Shown piece after piece: positions 1-13,938 of a DNA stretch of 64,000 nt; position 1 is the stretch's first letter; the number at the start of each line of letters is the position of its first letter. The stretch is from Candidatus Eiseniibacteriota bacterium. GTDB lineage: Bacteria; Arandabacterota; Arandabacteria; Arandabacterales; Arandabacteraceae. The notes below the pieces were generated by a model. That model worked only from the letters and a program-made list of their open reading frames with translations, made no database searches and was not told the origin of the DNA. The stretch lies in the NCBI GenBank assembly GCA_043810925.1, contig JBDRNT010000151.1, positions 3,565-67,564 on the forward strand, given 5' to 3'. Position numbers and translations under genes: made by a program.

Positions 1-1230
1 TACCTGAACGCAAGCTCGAATGCATCCGCAACGCTCACCAAGACAGGTGAAGATCAGGAGACGCAGCAGCAGGCCAAGGTCAACGCCGGTATGAATACCG
101 ACCTCAGGTTCGGCGGGAAATCCCAGACCATAAGATCGACAATGGTCCTGACGGCCGTACGCAAGGACATAGGGAAGTGGTGGAGTGATGGTGTCGGTGG
201 CAAGGTCGTCAACTCAGCCTACAGCGACCAGACCGATTTCATCGCAAAGTTCAAACCGTTCGGCTGGATCGACTTCGATCCGTCACTGACGGCGTCCGCG
301 ACCATCTATGATGAGGACAAGGCCGGAAAGAGAGGCGCCGCCAGGCTCATGTACTGGGGTGGTGTCTCCACAACCACATCGATCTTCAAGACCTTCTTTC
401 CCAGGATCGGCCCCTTGCAGGCGTTGAGACATGTGATTTCACCACGGATCACCTACACCCACCGGCCGGACTTCTCCAAGTACAGGAACCGTTTCTACAG
501 CCTGCCCGGGATATCAGGAGAGATATCCAAGTCGAGGATGATGAACATAAGCGTGTCCAACAAGCTTCAGGCCAAGGTCGGGAGTGGGGCGGAGGTTAAG
601 AAGATGAACAACCTCCTGTCTTTTGATACGTCGACATCATACGACTTCCTCTACAAGGACAAGGGCAAGGAGACTCCCCTGTCGACCATAAACAACAAAC
701 TGCGGTTCTACCCGTCGGATGTTATTACGTTCGATCTCGACTTTACCAACAACCCGGAGGATCTGGCCTTCGAGTCTTTGAATCTCACAACGAGACTCTC
801 ATGCTCGGGCAAAGAGCCCCTTCCACCGGGTTTCACCAAACCCGAACTCAAGGAAGAGCCGCTTGTGCCGGAAGAGGGGGTGGGAGGTTCGGATGCAGCC
901 GCCCCGACCGGAAAGCCCTGGCATACGAGTGCTATTTTCAGGTATACCAAGGCCTACAACGGGGGCGATGACAACTACTGGCTTGATTTCCAGGCGGGAT
1001 TCAGCTTCACCACCAACTGGAGAGTCGAGTATAGCGGCAGGTTCGATCTCTCCGGAAAGGAGACCGTCCACCAGGAATACTCGATCTACCGGGATCTGCA
1101 CTGTTGGGAGGCCCGTTTCGTCCGCAGATACTCCGCCGGCGAATGGCAGTATTACTTCAGGATAAACATAAAGGCCCATCCCGAGATCTACACCGAGCGG
1201 GGCCTCCGCACCCTCTACCGCCAATACTAG
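1..1230 (+). CDS. LptD-like outer-membrane LPS assembly beta-barrel, 5'-truncated by the window edge
   Basis: Frame is open from base 1. Amphipathic beta-strand pattern; C-terminal 'IYRDLHCWEARF...YYFRINIKA' is typical of LptD-like proteins of FCB/delta-type bacteria. Confidence 0.75.
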   Translation, partial: YLNASSNASATLTKTGEDQETQQQAKVNAGMNTDLRFGGKSQTIRSTMVLTAVRKDIGKWWSDGVGGKVVNSAYSDQTDFIAKFKPFGWIDFDPSLTASATIYDEDKAGKRGAARLMYWGGVSTTTSIFKTFFPRIGPLQALRHVISPRITYTHRPDFSKYRNRFYSLPGISGEISKSRMMNISVSNKLQAKVGSGAEVKKMNNLLSFDTSTSYDFLYKDKGKETPLSTINNKLRFYPSDVITFDLDFTNNPEDLAFESLNLTTRLSCSGKEPLPPGFTKPELKEEPLVPEEGVGGSDAAAPTGKPWHTSAIFRYTKAYNGGDDNYWLDFQAGFSFTTNWRVEYSGRFDLSGKETVHQEYSIYRDLHCWEARFVRRYSAGEWQYYFRINIKAHPEIYTERGLRTLYRQY

Positions 1231-1358: not shown

Positions 1359-1392
1359 TGCTTTAAAACTGTTATGGAAGGAGGTGCTTAGA

Positions 1393-1686
1393 ATGAACAA
1401 GCAGGAGCTAATTGATGCTGTTGCGGCCAAGACGGATCTTACGCCCGGCGAGGCCAAGAAGGCGGTTGACGCTATCTTCAGTCCCAAGTCTTCACAGGGC
1501 CTGATTGCTTCCGCGCTGAGTTCCGGTGACAAAGTGATCCTGGCCGGTTTCGGTACGTTTGAGACCAAGCAGAGGAAAGCAAGGACCGGAAGAAACCCGA
1601 AGACGGGTGAGGCCATTCAGATAGCGGCGCGCAAGCATCCGGGGTTCCATCCTGGGAAAACCCTCAAGGATGAAATCAACGCATAA
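1393..1686 (+). CDS. hup: HU family DNA-binding protein (copy 1)
   Basis: MNKQELIDAVA...GFGTFETKQRKARTGRNPKTGEAIQI; RBS AAGGAGG upstream of ATG 1393. Confidence 0.95.
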   Translation: MNKQELIDAVAAKTDLTPGEAKKAVDAIFSPKSSQGLIASALSSGDKVILAGFGTFETKQRKARTGRNPKTGEAIQIAARKHPGFHPGKTLKDEINA

Positions 1687-1794: not shown

Positions 1795-2778
1795 ATGCTG
1801 AAATACCTGCTGATCGTTTCTGTACTGCAACTCAGCCTGCTGCCGGGTGTGTACGGAGCAACATCATTCGACCGGACAGATGCCGATATGGGGTTCATCT
1901 ACCGCGATGAGCCTCAGAGGTTGGTATTTGAGTTTGACAATGTTTCGGATAATTCGCTCCGTATACTCGGAATCGAGCCTTCCTGTGACTGCACATCGGC
2001 CCAGGTAGTACCGGAGACACTGGGTCCGCGTGGCCACGGCAAGGTTCTCGTCTTCTTCGATCCCATGGGTTACGAGGGAAAAGGCCGGTTCAAGGAATTC
2101 GTGCGGATCGTAACGGACGACCCCTCAGAGCCCGAAGTACTGCTCACCTTCTCCGCCGAAGTGGGTATCGGCCCGGAACCCGATCCCCGTGCGCTCACCT
2201 TCGGCAAGATATGCAGGGGTGGCAGTGATACGCTTGACCTCTCTCTGCGCGCTGCGCCCGGTGAATTGCTCAAAGTGCTCGATGCATACAGCGACACGGG
2301 CTGCGTCATAGTCGAAGCGGTGGAGACCGGGGTCAGGGGCGAACATGAATTCAGAGTCATCGCTACCAACAGGGAAGGCTGCGGGCGCGTGGCAGGCCTT
2401 GTCACGATTCTGACGACCGACAGCCTGAGAAGTGAGGTCCGTGTCCCGATTACCCTGAGCCTGGTCGGGAGGATCATTGTCGAGCCGGACATAATCGCTT
2501 TCGGCCCGACGCTCCCCGGCACCTTTGTTGCGCAGACGGTTCGGATCTACTCCAAGGACGGCTTCAAGTTCAGTATCCCGAATGTCTCCTGCTCGGTGGA
2601 AAACCTTGAACCTGTCATCACGCCGGTTAGCGACAGCTCATGTGAGCTCAGGCTGATGGTCAAGGAGGGCTCTCCTCCAGGCAGGGTGGCCGGCGAGATC
2701 ACGCTGGAGACAGACTGCCCGGATGAATCGCCTCTGGATATCAGAGTTACCGGCTATATAAGGAAGGGCGGGAAGTGA
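1795..2778 (+). CDS. secreted DUF1573-domain protein with further Ig-like domains
   Basis: Signal peptide; 'FEFDNVSDNSLRILGIEPSCDCTSA...LGPRGHGKVLVFFDP' matches the DUF1573 CxC pattern. Confidence 0.75.
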   Translation: MLKYLLIVSVLQLSLLPGVYGATSFDRTDADMGFIYRDEPQRLVFEFDNVSDNSLRILGIEPSCDCTSAQVVPETLGPRGHGKVLVFFDPMGYEGKGRFKEFVRIVTDDPSEPEVLLTFSAEVGIGPEPDPRALTFGKICRGGSDTLDLSLRAAPGELLKVLDAYSDTGCVIVEAVETGVRGEHEFRVIATNREGCGRVAGLVTILTTDSLRSEVRVPITLSLVGRIIVEPDIIAFGPTLPGTFVAQTVRIYSKDGFKFSIPNVSCSVENLEPVITPVSDSSCELRLMVKEGSPPGRVAGEITLETDCPDESPLDIRVTGYIRKGGK

Positions 2779-3245
2779 AGCCGATCCTCAGACGTGCCGT
2801 CATAGAAGGTGGAATCATACTGGTGGTTGCCGCTGCGGCCGGGCTGGCGGTCAACCATGCCAGAACGGAGGGCATTCCGCTTATTGCTGATGCCGAGGCT
2901 TTCCGGGTCCGCACAAACGCCGAGTTCATGACGGCCAAGGATGCATTCCGGTTCTTTGAAGAGGGATCTGCCTTGTTTCTTGATGCCCGGGGTCCTGATC
3001 TGTTTGACGTGAAGCGCATTGAAGGGGCGATGAACATCTCCCCATCAGCAGAAGGTATCGAGAGCGTGGCTTGGCTTGCCGGAGCGGATATCCGCATCAT
3101 CTGCTATGCATGTGAGGAGAACCAGCGCGAGGCGGGAGTGCTGGCCGACATGCTGCTTGAGATCGGATGTAAGCAGGTATACGTCCTCCATGGCGGTATC
3201 GAGGGCTGGATAGACTCCGGTTTTCCTATGGAGGTAACAGGCTGA
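2775..3245 (+). CDS. membrane-anchored rhodanese-like domain protein
   Basis: N-terminal TM helix; 'LFLDARG...RIEGAMNI' and 'VYVLHGGIEGWIDSGFP' rhodanese signatures. Confidence 0.85.
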   Translation: MKPILRRAVIEGGIILVVAAAAGLAVNHARTEGIPLIADAEAFRVRTNAEFMTAKDAFRFFEEGSALFLDARGPDLFDVKRIEGAMNISPSAEGIESVAWLAGADIRIICYACEENQREAGVLADMLLEIGCKQVYVLHGGIEGWIDSGFPMEVTG

Positions 3246-3704
3246 GTGCGGTTTCTCAAACACATGGTCTCGAACAAGTACGTGATCTTTGCGATAAGGC
3301 TCATCCTTGGTTTTGTCTTCATCTATGCTTCCATAGACAAAATCGCACAGCCCGGTGCGTTTGCCGAGAACATTTACAATTACAGAATGCTACCCCACTG
3401 GGCCATCAATCTGATGGCGCTTGTGATGCCATGGCTTGAACTGATCTGCGGAGTTCTGATTATCACCGGTGTGTTCCTGAGGGGAAGCGCATTCATGATC
3501 GGTTTGATGCTGGGAGTGTTTATAATCGCGATCTCCGCCGCCCTCGTGAGGGGGCTTGACATAAGCTGCGGCTGCTTCAGCATGGAAGGGGGCCACGGCG
3601 TGGCTGTGGATCTGCTCATACGGGATGTGTTGATGTTCGCCGGGGCAGCGATCGTATTGTTTTTGGGAACCTCGGCGCTCTCGCTCAGACGAGGCGCGGA
3701 TTGA
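3246..3704 (+). CDS. MauE/DoxX family redox-associated membrane protein
   Basis: 'RLILGFVFIYASIDKI', 'PWLELICG', 'GLDISCGCFS' (CGC motif); four hydrophobic segments. Confidence 0.9.
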   Translation: MRFLKHMVSNKYVIFAIRLILGFVFIYASIDKIAQPGAFAENIYNYRMLPHWAINLMALVMPWLELICGVLIITGVFLRGSAFMIGLMLGVFIIAISAALVRGLDISCGCFSMEGGHGVAVDLLIRDVLMFAGAAIVLFLGTSALSLRRGAD

Positions 3705-3729
3705 CATAGGGTAGTGGTTCTGTTAGAAT
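3701..3729 (+). promoter_or_regulatory. near-consensus sigma70 promoter for the selenoprotein genes
   Basis: TTGACA(3701-06)-17 nt-TAGAAT(3724-29) with extended -10 TG; overlaps the MauE stop codon. Confidence 0.7.
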
Positions 3730-3764
3730 CTTGAAGGTCATTGAAACATCATGGAGGTAGGAAT

Positions 3765-5141
3765 ATGAGGTGGCATAGGGTCGGCATAAGCACTCTTGTC
3801 TTCCTGGGTCTTGTTCTCGTCGGGTTTTCGGGTGTGCTTCGTAGCCAGGGTGATGAAAGGCTGATGCTGGTATTCACTACCGGGACTGAAGGCGAGCTCA
3901 ATGCCTGCGGCTGACACGCCGGGGACAAGGGTGGCCTGGCCCGGAGGGCCGGCTTCATTGATTCACTGAGAGAAGTACACGACAATGTCCTCGTCGTAGA
4001 TGTGGGTGATTTCTTCGGCAATCGCTCTCCCAGACAGGAAAAGACAAAGACCACGGTCGTTGTAGACTACATGAGGATGGCCGGATATGACGTAGTCACG
4101 CCCGGTGAGCGCGAGATGAACTATGGCCTGGACTTCCTGATTGAAGAGACCAAGCAGGGCAAGTTTGAGACCGTGAGTGCCAACCTTCACAATAAGCAGG
4201 ACAGTACCCTGATATTCAAACCCTACGCGATCCGGAAGATAGCAGGCGTCAGTATCGGTTTCCTGGGATTCATGGATGATGATCCGCGTCGGGTGGGTGT
4301 TTTCGAGCAGCTCGAGAATGCCTACGTCTCAAGCTATATCCAGGCTGCAGAGGACTATCTGCCCGAGGTTCGTGAAAAGGCGGATCTGGTAGTCGGGCTT
4401 GCTCACGTCGGGCTTGGAAACGCACGGAAGCTGGCTGAAAGGCTTCCGGACTTCGATGTCATACTCGTCGGGCACGGCAGCGACAGAACGGCGATGGCCG
4501 AGAAGATCGGAGAGACCATCCTCGTCAAGGCCGGAAGTAAGAGCAGCTCGATAGGAATGCTCTTGCTCGCCCTCGACAGCGACAAACGGATTGTGGGTTT
4601 TGACGGCGGTTCCGAAGGGCTCACGAAGTATGGTAGAAAGCATCTGGATGTACAGCGGATTGTCAAGTCCTGTGAGGACCGTGAGAAGGCTCGTGACAGG
4701 CTGATCTCGGCACGGAAGTACAAGCTGCCCATCATCCCCCGGCGCCCCGAGGTACTGGCCGCCGAGGGCTATCTGGGGTGGGAAACGTGCAAAGCTTGCC
4801 ACAGCAAGATCCACGATCGATGGTCGCAGGATCCTCATTCCCAGGCTTTCGCGACGCTTGCGAAGGATGACAAGTGGAACGATGCGAGCTGCCTGCCCTG
4901 CCATACAACGGGTTATGAGATTGCGGCGCTCAAGGATTCGAGCGACGTAAAACCTGAAATGTGGAATGTCCAGTGTGAGGCCTGTCACGGGATGGGGACG
5001 CATCACAAGCGAGACGGTTCCATGAGGCCGGTTGCCGAGAGTGTGTGCCTGAGATGCCACACTCCCGAGTGGACCCCCGAGTGGAACTACGCGGAGATGC
5101 TGGAGAAGATCAACCACGGCAGGGACGAGGCTTCAGATTGA
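3765..5141 (+). CDS. probable selenoprotein: secreted UshA/5'-nucleotidase-like metallophosphoesterase (CxU motif) fused to a tetraheme cytochrome c (c554-like); 458 aa with Sec at codon 50
   Basis: ATG 3765 with GGAGG RBS and signal peptide. Reads GELNACG-[TGA 3912-14]-HAGDKGGLARRAGF in frame with ORF 4002..5141 (VDVGDFF, PGEREM, GLAHVG, VGHG). C-terminus has CKACH, CLPCH, CEACH, CLRCH. Confidence 0.85.
3934..3953 (+). promoter_or_regulatory. candidate bacterial SECIS hairpin for UGA 3912
   Basis: CTGGCCC-GGA-GGGCCGG stem-loop with a G-led apical loop ~28 nt after the UGA. Confidence 0.5.
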
Positions 5142-5275
5142 AAGCCCGGGCTGTCGTTTTCGTGTTACTTGCAGCATTTACGGTGCTGCTCCTGGTTGGG
5201 TTGCGGTTCGCTGAGACCGGGGACATCTACTCCACCGGCCGCTACCTCTGACTGAGCTGCATAGGGATCGGGTGA
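5138..5275 (+). CDS. probable 45-aa membrane selenopeptide with UxxC motif (CxxC-IGIG small-protein family, CD1871A-like)
   Basis: TTG start overlaps the upstream stop; one TM helix, then GRYL-[TGA 5249-51]-LSCIGIG-TGA(5273-75). The final stop overlaps the GTG of the 4Fe-4S gene. Confidence 0.8.
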
Positions 5276-5287
5276 TCCCCTCCGTGC
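5258..5287 (+). promoter_or_regulatory. candidate bacterial SECIS hairpin for UGA 5249
   Basis: GGGATC(5264-69)-GGGT-GATCCC(5274-79) perfect stem, with a lower GCAT/GTGC pairing; apical loop begins 18 nt after the UGA. Confidence 0.65.
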
Positions 5288-6207
5288 TTGCGATCTTACG
5301 CATCCTGCGTTCGGCGCTCAGCCGTGTGGGTTCTGCTTACCGGAAGCGTCGTCCGTGGCAGATCACTTCGACTATTCTCCACAATGCTTATCTGCCGGCT
5401 TCAATAGGTTTTACCGTTTACCGGGGTTTTCTTTATCTTCCCAATCTGGCGAAGATCACGCTCTACCAGGGGTTCTTAAAAGGCTTCTGCACGCCGACGC
5501 TTAACTGCTACGCGTGCCCGGGAGCGCTTATGTCCTGCCCTATCGGGAGCCTCCAGCATTTTGCAATCAGGCAACAGTTCCCGTTCTTCCTCGTGGGATT
5601 CTTTGGTCTCGTGGGTGTAGGTGTGGGAAGGATGACCTGTGGGTGGCTCTGTCCTTTCGGATTCTTTCAGGATCTGCTTAAGAAGATCTCAAGGAGAGTC
5701 GTACGACTTCCCCGGTGGATGGGTAACTTCAAGTATGTCTCGCTGGTTGGCATCGCCATATTGCTGCCGTTTTTCCTGGGGGAACTGTGGTTCTCCAAAC
5801 TCTGCCCGGCAGGGGGCCTGGAAGGTGCGATTCCCTGGGTGGCCGCGGGAGCCTCGGAGTCACCTGAGCTGGCGGGACTGGACGTGAGATCGATGATAGG
5901 CACCTTCTTCTGGATCAAGATGGCGATCCTCGGGGTTTTTCTGCTGGCCATGGTTTTCATCAAGCGGCCGTTCTGCCGGACGGCATGCCCGTTAGGGGCG
6001 ATCTTCTCACTCTTCAACAGGATCAGCCTGGTGAAGCTCAGTATCAACGAGGAGAAGTGCACCGAATGCGGCATTTGCGAGCAGATCTGCCCTGTCGATC
6101 TTAAAGCTTACAAAGAGCTGGATTCGACGGAATGTATCAAGTGCTTTGAGTGCACCAAGTGCCCGACGGGCGCGATCAAGGCGACTTTCGGCTTCGGCGG
6201 AAGCTGA
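5272..6207 (+). CDS. membrane 4Fe-4S polyferredoxin (NapH/MauN/YccM-like)
   Basis: LNCYACP, CGWLCPFG, FCRTACPLG, CTECGICEQICP, CIKCFECTKCP plus several TM helices. Confidence 0.9.
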   Translation: MIPSVLAILRILRSALSRVGSAYRKRRPWQITSTILHNAYLPASIGFTVYRGFLYLPNLAKITLYQGFLKGFCTPTLNCYACPGALMSCPIGSLQHFAIRQQFPFFLVGFFGLVGVGVGRMTCGWLCPFGFFQDLLKKISRRVVRLPRWMGNFKYVSLVGIAILLPFFLGELWFSKLCPAGGLEGAIPWVAAGASESPELAGLDVRSMIGTFFWIKMAILGVFLLAMVFIKRPFCRTACPLGAIFSLFNRISLVKLSINEEKCTECGICEQICPVDLKAYKELDSTECIKCFECTKCPTGAIKATFGFGGS

Positions 6208-6956
6208 TGGAATCCCTGACCGATCTGCTTTCGGAGACCGGGCTTAAGCGCCGGTCACCGGTGAGTGTACTTACCGGCGCCGGTGTCTCCGCCGAGAGCG
6301 GGGTCCCCACCTTCAGAGGCGAAGAAGGGCTCTGGAAAAACTTCAGAGCCGAAGAGCTGGCAACACCCGAGGCCTTCGACCGGGATCCGGCCACAGTCTG
6401 GGAATGGTACGATTACAGACGCCGGATAATTGCCGCCAAGGAGCCCAATCCCGCACACCGCGCGATCACGCGTCTTGATGAAGCCTTTCCTGACTTCCTG
6501 CTTATCACCCAGAACGTGGATGGGCTTCATGCCCGTGCGGGGACCAGACGAATCGCCGAGTTGCATGGGAACCTCTTCAGGGTACGGTGCACGCGGGACG
6601 GCGAGGTTTCCGATAACCTGGGAGTACCGCTTACCGAGATACCTCCGCGGTGCAAGTGCGGCTCGCTCCTGAGGCCGGATGTCGTCTGGTTCGGCGAGGG
6701 GCTCCCCAGGGAGGAGTTCGACAGGGCGTTCAATGCCGCCGAAGCCTGCAAGTTGATGCTCGTGGTCGGCACCTCGGCCGTTGTTCAGCCGGCGGCATCA
6801 ATACCGCTTGTGGCCAAGCAGGCTGGAGCCCTGGTAGTGGAAGTCAACCCCGATCCCACACCGCTTACCGATCTCGTCGATCTCCATCTGCGGGGCAACG
6901 CCGGCGAGGTCCTGCCGAGGGTCGTAGATATCCTGCTCGATTTTACAGATACGTAA
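6207..6956 (+). CDS. cobB: NAD-dependent protein deacylase (sirtuin, CobB)
   Basis: GAGVSAESGVPTFRG, TQNVDGLH, HGNL, RPDVVWFGE, GTSAVVQPA; ATG overlaps the upstream TGA. Confidence 0.92.
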   Translation: MESLTDLLSETGLKRRSPVSVLTGAGVSAESGVPTFRGEEGLWKNFRAEELATPEAFDRDPATVWEWYDYRRRIIAAKEPNPAHRAITRLDEAFPDFLLITQNVDGLHARAGTRRIAELHGNLFRVRCTRDGEVSDNLGVPLTEIPPRCKCGSLLRPDVVWFGEGLPREEFDRAFNAAEACKLMLVVGTSAVVQPAASIPLVAKQAGALVVEVNPDPTPLTDLVDLHLRGNAGEVLPRVVDILLDFTDT

Positions 6957-7104
6957 CGTCGGGCCTCCGAGCCCTACGGCATCTCCCCGCTACCGCTTCA
7001 GGCGCTACTTCCGGCGCCACTTCCGGTGCCGGAGCCGGAGAGTTGCAGGGTCTGGGCCGTCACAGAAGTTACCACCTCTCAGTACGCCGGAGCACTGTAG
7101 TGAC

Positions 7105-7133
7105 TTGATCCAGGCTCGTCGGGATGCTATACT
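7105..7133 (+). promoter_or_regulatory. putative sigma70 promoter
   Basis: TTGATC-17 nt-TATACT with extended TG. Confidence 0.55.
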
Positions 7134-7157
7134 CGCAAGCGAAAGGGGGTGCGAGGC

Positions 7158-7553
7158 ATGGCAAGACGGTTCATGTGTGTGTGTTTCGGAATTCTTGCAT
7201 TGGTCCTGGCATTTCATGTGGGCGCAAGGTTCGGGAGTGCAAGTATTGTGGATCACACGATGAGTGGCATCATCGCCATGAGTGAGAACGACAATTTCCG
7301 GGTACTGCTCGAGAATGGCGAGGCCTGGCGCTTCAGGCAGGATCTCGGGGTCTGGGAACCAATCTCGACCTGGGATCTTCCGGTTGCTGCATCGGAGATC
7401 AAGTTCTGGGACTGCAAGGCTTTTGTGACCTTTGCGAACGAGGTCTGGTACAAGCCTGTGGACGGTACGTGGCAGAACTACGGGGCACCGCCGCCTGTTG
7501 TTTCACTCAGCCCGACCACCTGGGGTGAGATCAAGGCCGAGTTTAGCGACTAA
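7158..7553 (+). CDS. small secreted hypothetical protein with C-terminal TTWGEIKAEF motif
   Basis: N-terminal hydrophobic signal; Trp-rich body; ends PPPVVSLSPTTWGEIKAEFSD. Confidence 0.7.
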   Translation: MARRFMCVCFGILALVLAFHVGARFGSASIVDHTMSGIIAMSENDNFRVLLENGEAWRFRQDLGVWEPISTWDLPVAASEIKFWDCKAFVTFANEVWYKPVDGTWQNYGAPPPVVSLSPTTWGEIKAEFSD

Positions 7554-7692: not shown

Positions 7693-10600
7693 ATGAAGGT
7701 ATGGCGGGGTCTGATCCTCGTTACTCTTACAATCCTGATAGTCGGGGTAGCTGCCGGTGACGCCGGAGCCGGAGGCGGCCTGTTCTTTGTCTCGGAGGAC
7801 GAGGCGGCGCCCGAGACCGACGCGGCCCACAATAGTCTAGAAGGGGCCGATCTCACCCTGATGTATGCCGGGTTTAAGGGGCCCGGGCCGGACTCACTGA
7901 TCATAGTCCTCGACTACTCAAGCAACTGGTACAACATACACCTGATGGTTGCCCTCGAGCGCAATGGTGATGCGGATGGTGCGCCATCCGACCCGTTCGA
8001 ATTTCCCGTCACCTACGGACATGTGCTTAAGCCCGACTATGTTTTTACCTACAAGTACAGCGCCAACGACTACGCCGATCTCAGGAAATGGAACGGTGGG
8101 TGGGAGTTCTGGCATCTGGCACAGTCCAGGTGGATAACCGATCCAGCCGACGCGGGCAAGAACGCCCTGGCCATGGTGACCAAGACCAATTCACAGGTGA
8201 TCTTCAGTTTTCCGGCCGATGCAATCGGTGAATTCCTGCCCGGAGATACTTTCAGACTCCAATCCTATCTTACCTTTGAGGCCTGGGACGACGAAACACA
8301 GCAGATGGTCAAGTTCAACGCACTTGACTCCAACCCTCACGATCTCACTCATGATATGGAACCTGATGAGGGTGAATGGTGGGAAACCGCCACTGACCCC
8401 GTAACGCTGTCAGAGTATGCGACCTACATACTGCCGGAGTATGGAGTGCCTCCCAGTCTGTTCTTTGCGGCAGCCTTCCCGGACAGTGCGGCACCCGGGG
8501 ACGATGTAAGGTTCAGTGTGGACGTAAGAGATGCCGGCGGTGGGATCGGTGATGTCTCTGTCGATCTTTCGAGCGTCGGTGGAGACCCCGAGACGCCACT
8601 CAAAGATGATGGCACGGGTGGTGATGGGACGGCATCCGATGGCGTATTCTCGGTGCTCTATACATTGCCCGACAGGGTGGGTGGTGGTGTACACACGCTT
8701 GAGTTTTCTGCCCGGGATTCCACCAATGTCATGCAATCCCTGACTGAGGGGACGCTCAAGATCCTGACCGTTCCGGAACTCATCCTGACGGTTGCCGACT
8801 CGGTCGGGGACGACCACGGACCCAACCAGCCCGGCGTGTCCGGCCTTTACTACGTATATCCTACGAACCGTGTTTTCTACGCCGGTGCCTTCGACATACA
8901 TGAAGTGGAGATGATCGTCGACGGGCAGTACCTCGTCGTACGCGTCCACATAGGGAACCTCCCGGCATCAAACCAGGTCGGGTGGGGCGCCCCGTTGCCG
9001 GGAGCGACCTGTACCAACCCCAACAGCGCCGATCTCAATCTCGAGAAGATCGATATCTACATAGATTCCGAGGAAGGCGTGGGCGCGCAGATGGGACTCC
9101 CCTATCGCTATGTCGACATCGCCGAGCATGACGCCTGGGAGTATGCGGTCGCGATAGAAGGATGGTGGAAAGGGTTTGTCGAATCCAACGGGTCGGACAA
9201 CATTGGGCAGTGGACGCTTCGCACGCAGACCGTGATCATCGATTTCTGCGACGATAATGTAGAGGACTATATAGACGTTAAGATCGGACTCGCGGCGCTG
9301 GGCAGCCCCACGCCCGAGGAGATCCTAAGGTGGGACTTCATCGTCACGATGTCCGGTCACGACGGCGATAGCAGCGACGACAACTTCGGAGCCATAAGAT
9401 CGGTCAATGCCGGCACACACGAGTGGCAGTTCGGCGGCGGCCGGAACAGCTCCGGCGGCAGGGACCGCGATCCCAACCTGATCGACGTGGTCGCGATACC
9501 GGGCCAGGGAAAAGCCGCGGGACGGACCCAGGAGGAGATGCTTGATTACCTCACGGATGAGGCCTGGGAGAGATACGACCTGGGCTATAATTCCTGCCGG
9601 CTCGAGGCTTCGTTCCCCTCCGGAGGCAAGGGTGTAATACTGGGTACGGTGGCGCTCGACGGCCCGCCCGCGAATGTTGAAGTCTATGTCGTGAACTCGC
9701 TGACCGGTGAGATCGGCGGAAACGGCATAACGACCGTGCCGGGAGGAACCGGGGCGTTTCAGATCCTGAGCATCGAGGACGGTACCTATTATCTCATAGC
9801 CAGCGCTCGCGGCTATGTCGCCTTTGATTCGCTTGTGACGATTACGGGCGAAGAGTTCATCGAGGTCGACATCGAGCTCGCCGTTGCGCGCGCAACAAGA
9901 TATGCGTTCATAGACAGCCTCGGTAATGAGATTTACTCCGAGTTTGTTACGGTGAGTCTGCCCGACAGCGGGATCTTCACCTATGAAGACCTGCTCTTCG
10001 AACCCAGGGACGATGCAGGGAATTCCGCCATCTTAAGCGGTGTCGAGCCCGACAGCGTAAGGGTATCTGTCAGTCTTATCGATCCCTCGGTGCCTCCGCG
10101 TGGGGAGGTCGTTCTGGCTGCGGATGCGATGGGCACCGAGTTGATTGACGAGTTCATCACGTCGGAGATGTTCGAGGACGGTGTGGGCAGGTTCTGGGTG
10201 CGTGACGACAGCCTGGAGGTATTGAGGATCGAGGTCAGCAAGGACTTGCTGGCGGGCGCCGTGGAGCTCAGGGTAAAGGAGCTCGAACCCAGGAAGGTCA
10301 GCCTTACGCCGGATGTGACTGAGATAGTAGTCGGAGGTTCCGAGCGAATCGAGCTGGGTGTCCAGCTCCTGGACGATGTAGACAACACGATACCGGTGCG
10401 CAACGTCACGGTGCGTGTTGTCGCCGTTCAAGGTGAGCCGATTGTCGAGCCGCCGGTCGACGATACCGACGGCAACGGGTTCTTCAAGTCATCGGTCTAC
10501 GGTTACCGGGCCGGCACCGTGCGGCTTACCGCCAGATCGGAAGACAACATCTATAAGAACCTGGCGTCGGACACAATCGAGGTCTTCTTCAGGCCCGGTC

Positions 10601-13600
10601 CTGCCGCTTCGATAACCGCTTCTCTCGATCCGATTGTTGCTGACAAAGGCCAGAACGGCACGGTGACTTTCCAGGTGGTTGACGCGTTCGGGAACGCCGT
10701 AGCCGAGCCGGGGGTTTCGATAGACCTGTCGACATACCCTGAGGGACTTCTGACCTCGCTTGAGACTCCGGTAACAACCGGCGCAACGGGGCTGGCCGAG
10801 GCCGACTTCACGGCCGGTAACCGCTATGGCTTCGTATCCATAGAGGCGACATCGGACTACCCGGTCGATCCGGTTGTGCTTTCCATCGCGCCGACCTCGC
10901 TTGTGGCCGAAGACGAGGCCGCTCCCGAGAGTGACCCCGCTCATAACAGCGATCCAGGCATCGATCTCACTACGATGTATGCAACTGTTCACGCCGACAC
11001 CCTGAACATTGCTCTTGAATTCTCGACTGCATGGGATGGTGCCCATCTCATGGTGGTCTTAGAGCGAAACAGGGATCATGCCGGTGGCGAACAGGATCCC
11101 TTCGAGTTTCCGATCTTCTACAGACACACCTTCAGACCCGACTACGTTTTCACCTACAAGTATTCGGGTGGTGACTATGCCGATCTTCGCAGGTGGAACG
11201 GTGGGTGGGAGTTCTGGCATCTTGCCAACGGAACCTGGATCACCGATCCGAATGATGCCGGCAAGGATGCCAAGGGCATGGTCGAGAAACTGGCTACCCT
11301 GGTGTGGTTTAAGTTCCCGCTTGCCGCGATAGGAGGGGTTTCAGAGGGTGATACGCTCAGGCTCGAGGCATACGTCACCCAGGAGTTCGAAGGCTCCAAG
11401 TACAACGCCCTTGACTCGAGTCCCAGTGATGCGACGCACGATATGGATCCCGACGAGGGTGAGTGGTGGGAGACGGCGACGACACCCGTCACACTCTCGA
11501 AATACGGTCTTTACATAGTACCGCTCCTGACAACGCCTCCCGATCTGAGCGATCCATCGGCCTCCCCGGACAGCGTCTCGCCCGGAGAGATTGTGACCTT
11601 CTCGGTCACGGTGGAAGATGCCGGTAGTGGGGTGGGTGACGTCTTTATGGATCTCACGCCGCTCGGCGGCCGGTCCGTGACCTGGCTTTATGACGACGGA
11701 ACACACGGGGATGACGCGCAGCTTGACGGGACCTACGCGAGCCGGTTCACGATTCCAGCGGGGGTCTCACAGGGGATTCACAATGTCGCGTTCGTGGCCA
11801 GAGACAGTCTCAACCTTGCGACTTCGACCGTCTCCGTCCCCGTCACGATCACGACGTTGCCCGTACCCTTCATCTCGGTCAGGGATTCGATCGGGGACGA
11901 CCACGGACCCAACATCACGGATGCCTCAGGAAATCCGGTGGCCGGACTTTATTACTACTATCCGACAAATGGCGTCTTCGCCGAAGGCGTATTCGACATA
12001 GAACAGGTTGATCTCATAATCGACGGCACGTGGCTGGCGATCAAGGTGCATGTCGGTGAGGTGCCCTCATCGGAGGCTGTCGGCTGGAATGCGCCGTATC
12101 CAGGAGAGAAGTGTACCGACCCGAACAAGGCCGATCTCAATCTGCAGAAGATAGACATCTATATCGATTCCGAGGAAGGTGTCGGGGCCACCTCGGGCCT
12201 TCCCAATCGCAATCACGACATAGCGAGGAGTGATGCCTGGGAGTATGCCGTCGCGATAGAAGGTTGGTGGAGGGGAATCGTAAGTTCCAACGGGGAAAAC
12301 GCAACCGCCTTCTGGACCTTGAGCAAACTCGCGTCTTCGATGTATTTCTGCACGGATCACGTCGACAATTCGATCGAGATAAGTATTGCGCTCGAAGCGC
12401 TCGGTCTTCTGCAGCCCGGGGAGGACATGACCGAGGAGAGGAAAGCGGCCATAGAGCGTGAGATCAAGACCTGGGAATTCATAATCACGACGGCCAGCCA
12501 CGATGGCGATAGCAGCGATGAGAATTTCGGAGGCATAAGATGGGTCAACCGGTCAACCGGTGAATGGCAGTTCGGGGGTGGACGGGACGGCGAAGGCGGC
12601 AGGGACAGGGATCCAAACATAGTCGATGTGGTAACAGTGCGCGACTCCCTCTCGCTTGCGGGAAGACCCCAGGAGGAGATGCTCAACTACGATCTCCCGT
12701 ATGCCCAGAAGCGCTTTGAGAATCTCTTGAACGCCTGCGTGCTGGAGGCGACATTCTCCGAGGATATCTCACCACCCGACATAACCCCGTTCCACAGGGG
12801 CCGGTTCGGGCATTCGAGATGGTGGGTGCTCCAGTACAGCCCGGCTTCATTCTGGACACTGATAGTGGATGAAAGTGATATAGAGGAGGTCCAGTTCCGC
12901 TGGCGGCCTGAGGGGCAGATGTCCTGGAACGTGACCGAGATGGGACACATACTTGAGGACTACTGGATAGCCGATATCGACCCGGTGGAACTGGAAAGCG
13001 CGACGCGTCCGGTAACGCTGGTTGACGGAACCGTGGGACGGCCGTTCCAGGCCGAGATCTATGCCCGCGATGAGTTCGGTAACGAGGGCAGGAGCGAACT
13101 GCTGACATTCGCCGTTGCTGAGGACAGACTGGCCTTTGATGACAGCATAAACATAAAGCCGGGTGAGGCTTTCATAGCGTATGACGGCACATTCGTCCTT
13201 GTGCCGGACACAACGCTTTCGGAGGATTACGACGAGTTTGATATCCGGGTTACCCCGCTGCCCGAGTACGGTCCGGGATCGGTAGATCTCACGAATCTGA
13301 GATCGTCGATGGACTACATGGGTGTGGGACGGCGGATTGATGTCGTCGGCAGGAGCCTGGAGGATACGAGCATGATTTCAAAGCTCGACAACTCCATGAT
13401 CGTGGCTCTCCACTATCCATCGTACAAGCAGAGCGGACGGCTGGACGAGCAGCGAATAGGTCTTTTCCGGTATAACGATCTCACCGAGCGCTGGATCGGT
13501 ATGTACGGCTCCGTCAACGACTGGGGGAATGCCGTCAGGGCGGAGATAGACGAACCCGGCACCTTCGGTCTCTTCGCGGATTCACGGCTTTCATATGATT

Positions 13601-13938
13601 CGGGGAAGGGGCTTTCGGGTGTCACCGTCGAACCCAATCCCTTCTCGCCGAACGGTGACGGGCTCTATGACGAGACAAGAATAAACTTCTATCTCGCCAG
13701 AGAGATCGACTGGATAACGATCGAAATCTACGACATCGCCGGGCAAGCCGTGCGGACGATCCGTTGGCAGGAGGGTGTGACCCGGTTGACGCGGAACGAA
13801 GTCTACATCGATTGGGACGGAAAAGACGATAACGGTAGAGTCGTGCCCTATGGTATTTACATTCTAAGAGTCGAGGCGCGCTTTAAGGTTGCGCCGAACC
13901 TCGAACGTGAAAACAAAGCTGTTGTTGTGATCAAGTAG
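7693..13938 (+). CDS. giant (2081 aa) secreted multidomain protein: two copies of [Trp-rich DOMON-like + choice-of-anchor-X-like Ig + glucodextranase-C DOMON-like], central Ig-like domains, C-terminal FlgD/CHU_C-type sorting domain
   Basis: Signal peptide; duplicated 'EDEAAPE.D..HNS', 'L.DDGT.GD...DG' and 'DS.GDDHGPN...YYYP.N.VF..G.FDI'; C-terminal 'PNPFSPNGDGLYDET...IYDIAGQAVRTI...WDGKDDNGRVVPYGIYI'. Confidence 0.8.
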   Translation: MKVWRGLILVTLTILIVGVAAGDAGAGGGLFFVSEDEAAPETDAAHNSLEGADLTLMYAGFKGPGPDSLIIVLDYSSNWYNIHLMVALERNGDADGAPSDPFEFPVTYGHVLKPDYVFTYKYSANDYADLRKWNGGWEFWHLAQSRWITDPADAGKNALAMVTKTNSQVIFSFPADAIGEFLPGDTFRLQSYLTFEAWDDETQQMVKFNALDSNPHDLTHDMEPDEGEWWETATDPVTLSEYATYILPEYGVPPSLFFAAAFPDSAAPGDDVRFSVDVRDAGGGIGDVSVDLSSVGGDPETPLKDDGTGGDGTASDGVFSVLYTLPDRVGGGVHTLEFSARDSTNVMQSLTEGTLKILTVPELILTVADSVGDDHGPNQPGVSGLYYVYPTNRVFYAGAFDIHEVEMIVDGQYLVVRVHIGNLPASNQVGWGAPLPGATCTNPNSADLNLEKIDIYIDSEEGVGAQMGLPYRYVDIAEHDAWEYAVAIEGWWKGFVESNGSDNIGQWTLRTQTVIIDFCDDNVEDYIDVKIGLAALGSPTPEEILRWDFIVTMSGHDGDSSDDNFGAIRSVNAGTHEWQFGGGRNSSGGRDRDPNLIDVVAIPGQGKAAGRTQEEMLDYLTDEAWERYDLGYNSCRLEASFPSGGKGVILGTVALDGPPANVEVYVVNSLTGEIGGNGITTVPGGTGAFQILSIEDGTYYLIASARGYVAFDSLVTITGEEFIEVDIELAVARATRYAFIDSLGNEIYSEFVTVSLPDSGIFTYEDLLFEPRDDAGNSAILSGVEPDSVRVSVSLIDPSVPPRGEVVLAADAMGTELIDEFITSEMFEDGVGRFWVRDDSLEVLRIEVSKDLLAGAVELRVKELEPRKVSLTPDVTEIVVGGSERIELGVQLLDDVDNTIPVRNVTVRVVAVQGEPIVEPPVDDTDGNGFFKSSVYGYRAGTVRLTARSEDNIYKNLASDTIEVFFRPGPAASITASLDPIVADKGQNGTVTFQVVDAFGNAVAEPGVSIDLSTYPEGLLTSLETPVTTGATGLAEADFTAGNRYGFVSIEATSDYPVDPVVLSIAPTSLVAEDEAAPESDPAHNSDPGIDLTTMYATVHADTLNIALEFSTAWDGAHLMVVLERNRDHAGGEQDPFEFPIFYRHTFRPDYVFTYKYSGGDYADLRRWNGGWEFWHLANGTWITDPNDAGKDAKGMVEKLATLVWFKFPLAAIGGVSEGDTLRLEAYVTQEFEGSKYNALDSSPSDATHDMDPDEGEWWETATTPVTLSKYGLYIVPLLTTPPDLSDPSASPDSVSPGEIVTFSVTVEDAGSGVGDVFMDLTPLGGRSVTWLYDDGTHGDDAQLDGTYASRFTIPAGVSQGIHNVAFVARDSLNLATSTVSVPVTITTLPVPFISVRDSIGDDHGPNITDASGNPVAGLYYYYPTNGVFAEGVFDIEQVDLIIDGTWLAIKVHVGEVPSSEAVGWNAPYPGEKCTDPNKADLNLQKIDIYIDSEEGVGATSGLPNRNHDIARSDAWEYAVAIEGWWRGIVSSNGENATAFWTLSKLASSMYFCTDHVDNSIEISIALEALGLLQPGEDMTEERKAAIEREIKTWEFIITTASHDGDSSDENFGGIRWVNRSTGEWQFGGGRDGEGGRDRDPNIVDVVTVRDSLSLAGRPQEEMLNYDLPYAQKRFENLLNACVLEATFSEDISPPDITPFHRGRFGHSRWWVLQYSPASFWTLIVDESDIEEVQFRWRPEGQMSWNVTEMGHILEDYWIADIDPVELESATRPVTLVDGTVGRPFQAEIYARDEFGNEGRSELLTFAVAEDRLAFDDSINIKPGEAFIAYDGTFVLVPDTTLSEDYDEFDIRVTPLPEYGPGSVDLTNLRSSMDYMGVGRRIDVVGRSLEDTSMISKLDNSMIVALHYPSYKQSGRLDEQRIGLFRYNDLTERWIGMYGSVNDWGNAVRAEIDEPGTFGLFADSRLSYDSGKGLSGVTVEPNPFSPNGDGLYDETRINFYLAREIDWITIEIYDIAGQAVRTIRWQEGVTRLTRNEVYIDWDGKDDNGRVVPYGIYILRVEARFKVAPNLERENKAVVVIK

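Follow-up and report, generated by a model that had tools for sequence, protein, structure and literature searches.

The window analysed here is a stretch of 64,000 nucleotides from a Candidatus Eiseniibacteriota bacterium (assembly GCA_043810925.1, contig JBDRNT010000151.1, positions 3,565 to 67,564 of the forward strand), and the gene with which we are concerned occupies positions 3765 to 5141 of it. As read from its sequence, the product of this gene has 458 residues, is exported to the periplasm and contains one selenocysteine (Sec, U) and four hemes; it belongs either to the UshA-like (seleno)protein family NF041198 (UshA_like_PCGU) itself or to a sister clade of that family. The explanation that in our view best covers the observations as a whole, with a probability of about 0.8, is that of an exported Sec protein of the NF041198 kind, in which a nucleotidase fold that is dead as an enzyme would take part in redox chemistry wired through the hemes. 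The features of the gene are as follows:

3701–3729, plus strand: putative promoter-like site of the sigma-70 type, TTGACA-17-TAGAAT, the -10 being preceded by TG (11/12 matches)
3753–3757, plus strand: ribosome-binding site GGAGG, read from the sequence, with a 7-nt spacer to the ATG at 3765
3765–5141, plus strand: complete selenoprotein gene of 458 codons and a stop, containing a single in-frame UGA
3765–3845, plus strand: predicted N-terminal export signal or anchor MRWHRVGISTLVFLGLVLVGFSGVLRS, basic and then hydrophobic, with residues 2–24 modelled as a helix
3855–4718, plus strand: UshA/5'-nucleotidase-type metallophosphoesterase fold, residues about 31–318 (from NF041198 positions 7–276, the PDB profile and Foldseek)
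3906–3914, plus strand: Cys48-Gly49-Sec50, encoded by TGC-GGC-TGA, the invariant family motif with C or U at the third position
3936–3952, plus strand: hairpin of the selenocysteine insertion sequence (SECIS) type, with a 7-bp stem (3936–3942 and 3946–3952) and a GGA loop (3943–3945)
4104–4115, plus strand: GERE in place of the 5'-nucleotidase motif GNHE, from translation and profile comparison
4767–5138, plus strand: predicted cytochrome c554-like tetraheme domain, with CxxCH at 4788–4802, 4890–4904, 4974–4988 and 5046–5060

Standard open reading frame (ORF) calling opens the frame at the GTG at 4002 and yields an ORF of 4002–5141. When TGA is read as U, a single frame extends from 3765 to 5138, with 458 codons plus the stop and one in-frame UGA at 3912–3914; the translated stretch around this UGA reads ...NACGU-HAGDKGGLARRA..., and the TGA at 5139–5141 is the gene's own stop. 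An earlier, sequence-only reading of this DNA had proposed that the call at 4002 loses the signal peptide, and that translation starts instead at the ATG at 3765, behind a GGAGG and a consensus promoter, and passes in frame through TGC-GGC-TGA into the conserved GG.AR.A segment. Translation of 3765–5138 confirms the frame, which restores the basic-hydrophobic N-terminus, and both upstream signals are present as described. In the alignments, several relatives carry a lipobox Cys in place of this N-terminal signal or anchor. The -35 element of the promoter-like site shares nucleotides with the stop codon of the MauE/DoxX gene that precedes it, and 10 genomes from the family (L025–L034) show the exact TTGACA-17-TAGAAT pattern a short way ahead of the orthologue; promoter-like sites in the region overall show no enrichment (3 found versus 2.1 expected).

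The UGA at 3912–3914 is read as a selenocysteine codon on four independent lines of evidence, namely the conservation of the TGA, the existence of Cys-containing relatives, a hairpin behind the codon and the presence of the Sec machinery. A six-frame search detected an orthologue in 17 of 18 genomes of the phylum, the remaining genome being 57% complete. Within the gene proper, a single in-frame TGA occurs in each of these orthologues; three of the matches additionally contain a TAA or TAG, interpreted as the terminal stop codon of the gene, where the match ends. In 17/17 the TGA directly follows Cys-Gly, which holds down to 34% protein identity. The residue before this motif is Pro in 16 of the 17 (P-C-G-U), and only the window gene has Ala (A-C-G-U, residues 47–50). 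A scan of the GTDB species genomes returned at least 559 relatives, from which 80 loci were retained; together with the phylum loci these gave 70 distinct sequences with TGA at the same codon, from many phyla, and nine with TGC or TGT. Full-length database homologues (P0062, P0064, P0084 and P0095) have Cys-Gly-Cys at the UGA site, and in an alignment of 33 sequences the C, the G and the C/U are invariant (33/33). The expectation of the sequence-only reading that homologues would show CGC or CGU, and with it the assignment of selenocysteine to the C-G-U motif, is thus borne out.

The genome encodes the machinery that such a codon requires: a tRNA-Sec with anticodon tca (74.2 bits), SelB (375.8 bits), SelA (587.2 bits) and SelD (395.5 and 361.7 bits), all of which score above their cut-offs. 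One of the selD copies (G000:C89:56288-57423; L019, L001), located about 120 nt upstream of the tRNA-Sec gene, itself has one in-frame TGA, so that SelD is probably a selenoprotein here as well; the second selD, on contig C38, is free of TGA. A genome-wide reassignment of TGA was considered and rejected, because the gene under study ends at a TGA and because the Sec machinery is present.

It is extremely unlikely, in our judgement, that the TGA at 3912–3914 is a true stop, a sequencing error or a pseudogene lesion, which would leave either a 49-codon leader ORF followed by a protein starting at 4002, or a broken gene. This view would agree with the standard ORF call and with the database gene calls of relatives, which are likewise short: among the 120 database homologues listed, 116 cover at most 87% of the query, and the four short ones that were inspected (P0002, P0008, P0023 and P0085) start right behind the UGA, as though gene callers had truncated them. 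However, it does not account for a TGA kept at the same codon in 17/17 orthologues and in 70 distinct sequences, with Cys in others, nor for the 29 codons between the TGA and 4002, which encode the conserved GGLARRA segment of the fold. Attachment of c-type hemes needs export, and a product starting at 4002 would have no export signal. As for a sequencing error, which the sequence-only reading had named as a possible objection, contigs of two other metagenome runs carry the TGA unchanged: one (X3, which might be the source sample) is identical over 3765–3923, and the other (X2, from a relative) bridges 3891–3952. Four DNA sequencing runs contain only 5–9% of the sequence words, and the contigs cover only small parts of the gene.

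A further line of evidence is the hairpin at 3936–3952, which sits on the Leu-Ala-Arg-Arg-Ala-Gly codons and whose loop begins 28 nt after the UGA; the sequence-only reading had noticed a G-looped hairpin at about this distance. A stem of at least 5 bp with a GGN triloop on the Arg-Arg codons is present in 67 of the 70 Sec forms and in none of the nine Cys forms, even though the latter encode a similar R-R/K motif; the distance from UGA to loop is 28 nt in 66 sequences and 25 nt in four. The contrast in stem between Sec and Cys forms gives a Mann-Whitney p of 1e-6, a value that overstates the case because the relatives are not independent. Among 56 distinct Sec forms, 85.5% of the cells of the stem are paired, versus 34–60% when the partner is slid, and 27 cells have changed on both sides, a value reached by none of 500 shuffles; most of these compensatory changes affect synonymous third positions in the Leu codon and in the second Ala codon. 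The significance of the hairpin comes from this comparison with relatives, that is, from a position-specific stem test, and not from folding energy: shuffled sequences fold as well as the 85 nt that follow the UGA (z = -0.24), and the minimum free energy of the whole segment does not separate Sec from Cys forms (p = 0.086). An Rfam scan of 3700–4200 with E values up to 10 returned no SECIS family and three chance snoRNA matches. One contig (L075) has two same-strand paralogues about 4 kb apart (about 1950–3300 and 6016–7407), one with C-G-U and the other with C-G-C; the hairpin is found only in the Sec copy, which has a 7-bp stem, the Cys copy having 4 bp.

With U read as C, the protein matches NF041198 at 262.8 bits (E 5.7e-78) in two stretches, against a cut-off of 275. 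Residues 16–279 match profile positions 7–276, and the heme part alone (4602–5138; residues 295–442) matches positions 366–518 of 519 at 115.3 bits. Positions 277–365 are largely unmatched, which points to a shorter linker between the domains. Some relatives pass the cut-off (P0062 at 284.4 and P0064 at 294 bits) and another is below it (P0084 at 219.8 bits); the window protein is 30–33% identical to these three. NF041198 equals the family listed as "COG0737, UshA-like, CxU" by Zhang and Gladyshev in 2008, with 76 Sec sequences from an ocean survey (PMC2398784), and two reviews list it in their tables as well (PMC9312934, PMC13188914). The rows of these tables give family, motif and accession, with no heme domain and no function (PMC2398784, PMC9312934, PMC13188914). 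The window protein shares with NF041198 the CxU/CxC motif, placed in the loop that follows the first strand, the 5'-nucleotidase-type N-terminal domain, the tetraheme C-terminal domain, export, and the coexistence of Sec and Cys forms; it differs in its score and in having A-C-G-U for P-C-G-U. The membership in a known UshA-like CxU family that the sequence-only reading had proposed is thereby supported.

That reading had also found four CxxCH motifs at the C-terminus, which are indeed there, and had presented them as a replacement of the usual C-terminal domain special to this locus. The latter claim does not hold. Both P0062 and P0064 carry the same four CxxCH, and so do 79 of the 80 family ORFs counted in the retained loci, the last having three. 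Because the NF041198 model and the relatives that pass it include the tetraheme module, the fusion is the normal architecture of the family and, as judged from these matches, it defines the UshA-like (seleno)protein family and not the window locus. In the same genome, a stand-alone frame of 171 aa (G000:C165:11426-11791; L124) matches only the heme part of NF041198 (positions 396–516, 80.2 bits) and represents a free c554-like cytochrome akin to the fused domain.

The N-terminal domain has the fold of UshA and other 5'-nucleotidases. With the family profile, the PDB matches include 5'-nucleotidases at an E value of 2.6e-39 and SoxB at about 1e-21. An AlphaFold2 model built from the 33 aligned relatives has a mean predicted local distance difference test (pLDDT) score of 80.8 and a predicted template modelling (pTM) score of 0.70, with pLDDT mostly above 90 in this domain, and its best Foldseek matches in the PDB are the E. 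coli 5'-nucleotidases 3ivd and 2ush (E about 1e-22). The window protein has in common with E. coli UshA and other 5'-nucleotidases (1ush, 2ush, 3ivd; CD73; the snake-venom enzyme 5h7w) and with SoxB (2wdc) the fold, the GG-x-ARR segment and the GD motif. In contrast to them, it is without the His of the DxH motif, the Asn-His of GNHE and the nucleotide-binding C-terminal domain, and it has gained C-G-U and four hemes. No Pfam match to 5_nucleotid_C was obtained with the window protein, whose C-terminus is the tetraheme domain.

The seven dimetal and catalytic positions, D-H-D-N-H-H-H in 5'-nucleotidases, are G40, E42, D82, E115, R116, H214 and H237 in the window protein, in line with the reading of GNHE as GERE that had already been made from the sequence. 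Of the 33 sequences in the alignment, only two retain the motif-I His, none has either the motif-III Asn (replaced by Glu in 19) or the catalytic His, and none carries the complete canonical set; D82 survives in 22, H214 in 23 and H237 also in 23. Those residues that are invariant are C48, G49, C/U50, G56, R60 and G81, with R61 in 32/33. Hydrolysis is unlikely, because the nucleotidase catalytic residues are absent across the aligned relatives. We regard as very unlikely a metal-dependent hydrolase of the SoxB-like or nucleotidase-like kind, in which the hemes and CxU would serve regulation or substrate tethering. It would be in keeping with the clear 5'-nucleotidase/SoxB-like fold and sequence, with the two-thirds of members or so that keep D82, H214 and H237, and with the Glu that often stands in for the motif-III Asn. 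It has to contend, however, with the loss of the GNHE His in 33/33 and of the motif-I His in 31/33, with the absence of the nucleotide-binding C-terminal domain of UshA, and with the invariance of C-G-C/U and R60 in a family of which about a third has given up the other ligands as well. The redox rather than hydrolytic role that the sequence-only reading suggested is a reasonable proposal, and this family-wide loss of catalytic residues strengthens it.

The C-terminal domain matches Pfam PF13435 (E 1e-12; 49.2 bits versus a gathering threshold of 20.8), and with the family profile residues 328–419 match cytochrome c554 (1bvb) at an E value of 8.9e-20. The four CxxCH stand in the same order as in cytochrome c554 of Nitrosomonas (1bvb/1ft5; PF13435), which is a stand-alone electron carrier, whereas the module in the window protein is fused to the CxU domain. 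All four CxxCH as well as H358 and H414 are invariant in the alignment, and H451 is found in 30/33; in the heme domain of these sequences, the conservation of any further column of His, Met, Lys, Cys or Tyr stays below 80%. Three conserved distal-type histidines (H358, H414 and H451) are hence available for four hemes. Cytochrome c554 itself has one five-coordinate heme.

The surroundings of the gene in the window are the following:

1–1230, plus strand: 3' part of a gene for an LptD_2-type outer-membrane protein (Pfam PF19838)
1384–1686, plus strand: gene for an HU/IHF-like DNA-binding protein, between LptD and the selenoprotein block (from translation)
1795–2778, plus strand: gene for an exported DUF1573 protein (Pfam PF07610)
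2775–3245, plus strand: gene for a membrane-anchored rhodanese-domain protein (Pfam PF00581)
3246–3704, plus strand: gene for a MauE/DoxX-family membrane protein (Pfam PF07291 at 2.1e-27)
5272–6207, plus strand: gene for a NapH/MauN-like membrane polyferredoxin (Pfam PF12801; Fer4_5 plus two 4Fe-4S motifs)
6150–6956: gene for a Sir2 deacylase, downstream of the NapH-like gene

The NapH-like protein scores 73.7 bits against TIGR02163, below the cut-off of 213. The block DUF1573-rhodanese-MauE-selenoprotein-NapH-like is kept in 6/6 sampled genomes of the same order, with LptD in five of them, HU in four and Sir2 in four. Clustering of the flanking ORFs of the 80 loci gave, as the most frequent neighbours, LptD (44), a protein of about 300 aa downstream (29), an RNase T-type exonuclease (28) and HU (27). 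The LptD-like gene in these 44 loci is upstream on the same strand, and if only the 55 loci are counted whose upstream sequence extends for 2.5 kb or more, it is present in 38. The order LptD_2-type, HU, UshA-like selenoprotein recurs (L043–L120) in Eisenbacteria, Krumholzibacteriota, Fibrobacteraceae, Gemmatimonadetes and the phylum of the window. This LptD-HU-selenoprotein gene order across several phyla is new here, and it reflects either function or inherited order.

Some further observations concern these neighbours. The downstream protein of the 29 loci is exported, has about 265–300 aa (for example L082 7340-8134), follows the selenoprotein gene directly, and is followed in turn by the RNase T-type gene in 28 loci; neither Pfam nor NCBIfam gave a match for it. 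A weak similarity links the DUF1573 protein to the OS_HP2 (seleno)protein family (46.8 bits against a cut-off of 100) and the rhodanese to the "rhodanese LYCAU" (seleno)protein family (30.6 bits against 115), so that, with the NF041198 match, three neighbouring genes resemble families that have Sec forms elsewhere; no in-frame TGA was seen in the DUF1573 or rhodanese gene (1795–3245). Farther downstream, 7693–13938 encodes an exported protein of 2081 residues with two Glucodextran_C-type modules, Big_1/invasin Ig domains and a C-terminal FlgD_ig/CHU_C-type domain that looks like a type IX secretion sorting signal. This protein is internally duplicated, its N-terminal 650 or so residues recurring from about residue 1090.

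How the parts of the selenoprotein might work together can be outlined as follows. The protein would not be a hydrolase; its four hemes would form a wire that carries electrons between the respiratory chain and the Cys48-Gly49-Sec50 loop, and in the bacterial order to which the window belongs the route may pass via the adjacent NapH-like membrane ferredoxin, a candidate partner on the quinol side. The invariant Arg60, with Arg61 beside it in 32/33, would act as a clamp for an anion or substrate. The C-G-U loop would make or break chalcogen bonds through a selenenylsulfide, in a periplasmic chemistry of sulfur, selenium or thiols; candidate substrates are the polysulfide or persulfide sulfur from the neighbouring rhodanese, selenite, and disulfides of proteins or small molecules. 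A rhodanese next door recalls the Sud/Psr pairing for polysulfide. Because there are three conserved non-motif histidines for four hemes, one heme may be five-coordinate, or it may be ligated from the N-terminal domain, possibly by Cys48, which would create a heme-plus-Sec centre. Taken jointly, the absence of hydrolysis, the heme wire to the C-G-U loop, the Arg60 clamp and the unusual heme have in our estimation close to an even chance, or slightly less, of all being right.

A centre of this type has a precedent in MccSep (ExtKL) of Geobacter sulfurreducens (NF040886; 9wt8, 9wt9), which, like the window protein, is a periplasmic multiheme c-type cytochrome with Sec supplied by a non-heme domain (PMC13510729). 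MccSep has five hemes, one of them His/Cys-ligated, with Sec325 coming from a separate domain and Arg83 holding an anion, and it reduces polysulfide and selenite (PMC13510729). Its Cys at the active heme and its anion-binding Arg parallel the roles proposed here for Cys48 and Arg60, whereas it combines five hemes with an Ig-like Sec domain in place of four hemes with a nucleotidase-fold Sec domain, and its motif is D-G-U-P in place of C-G-U (PMC13510729). NF040886 is absent from the 20 NCBIfam matches of the window protein, P0062 scores 14.9 bits against its cut-off of 250, and the PDB match to 9wt8/9wt9 is marginal (E 0.0035) and covers heme motifs only. Because there is no homology beyond the heme motifs, the comparison with MccSep is to be understood as "works like" and not as "is a".

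The main rival within the redox reading keeps the identity of the protein and reverses the flow of electrons. The protein would then be a heme-wired periplasmic thiol oxidase or isomerase, a stand-in for DsbA/DsbB that introduces disulfides into proteins of the envelope, for example the co-located LptD, and passes the electrons via the hemes to the respiratory chain. We consider this unlikely, although several observations suit it. No match to DsbB (PF02600) or VKOR (PF07884) was obtained in the window's genome, which is 91.7% complete, so that their absence is not shown; DsbA and DsbD/CcdA were not among the searches. A gene of the MauE/DoxX family, which is linked to disulfide or thiol redox, lies directly upstream, and the LptD-like gene stands upstream on the same strand in 38/55 loci of several phyla. 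This adjacency, however, may be an inherited order among related phyla of the Fibrobacteres–Chlorobi–Bacteroidetes (FCB) type, and the Cys-form paralogues of Krumholzibacteriia (L065, L073, L076 and L078) are without an LptD neighbour. It should also be kept in mind that reductive or nucleophilic catalysis is more typical of Sec.

Returning to the preferred reading, a heme-wired redox protein with Sec in its C-G-U loop, several points weigh against it. The score for NF041198 is 12 bits short of the cut-off, which leaves the protein outside strict equivalog membership. D82, E115, H214 and H237 survive in about two-thirds of the members, the window protein included, so that a single metal ion may still bind and a metal-dependent role is possible. 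The heme domain is modelled with a pLDDT of only 56–74. The neighbours that suggest sulfur chemistry do not extend far: neither of the two class-level relatives has a rhodanese, MauE or NapH-like gene within about 7 kb, and by tblastn across many phyla DUF1573, rhodanese, MauE, NapH-like and SIR2 genes are found in only 5–7 of the 80 loci, mostly those of the closest relatives. Being confined to one order, the rhodanese, MauE and NapH-like genes cannot explain the function of the family in general, and the idea of a family-wide functional module made up of the DUF1573, rhodanese, MauE, NapH-like and SIR2 genes was rejected. The neighbours that are deeply conserved (LptD, HU, the protein of about 300 aa and RNase T) carry no hint of sulfur. 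Finally, no experiment on any member of the UshA-like CxU family was found in the literature.

A wider proposal, which we put forward tentatively and regard as somewhat unlikely, is that the UshA-like C-G-U/tetraheme family represents a second, independently evolved heme-plus-Sec oxidoreductase acting on chalcogen bonds, and that the LptD-HU gene order couples it to envelope biogenesis in FCB-type phyla, here Eisenbacteria, Krumholzibacteriota, Fibrobacterota, Gemmatimonadota and the phylum of the window. In such an oxidoreductase, the c554-type heme without a His as distal ligand would face, or be bound by, the Cys-Gly-Sec loop of the dead nucleotidase fold, which would make the family a functional counterpart of MccSep.

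Overall, the annotation fix for a mis-called member of a catalogued family is sound, and the points added here are the contrast in hairpin between Sec and Cys forms, the census of ligands, the analogy with MccSep and the LptD-HU synteny. Gene callers that start after the UGA drop both the signal peptide and the invariant active-site loop, and NCBIfam NF041198 misses the clade of the window by 12 bits; as a consequence, a widespread periplasmic heme selenoprotein is filed as an "uncharacterised multiheme cytochrome". The UshA-like CxU family is large and spread over many phyla, with no assigned reaction 18 years after it was first listed. The structure of MccSep, solved in 2026, may now serve as a template for how a heme-wired selenocysteine could cleave S-S or Se-O bonds in the periplasm, and the conserved LptD neighbourhood provides a second lead on what this family does.

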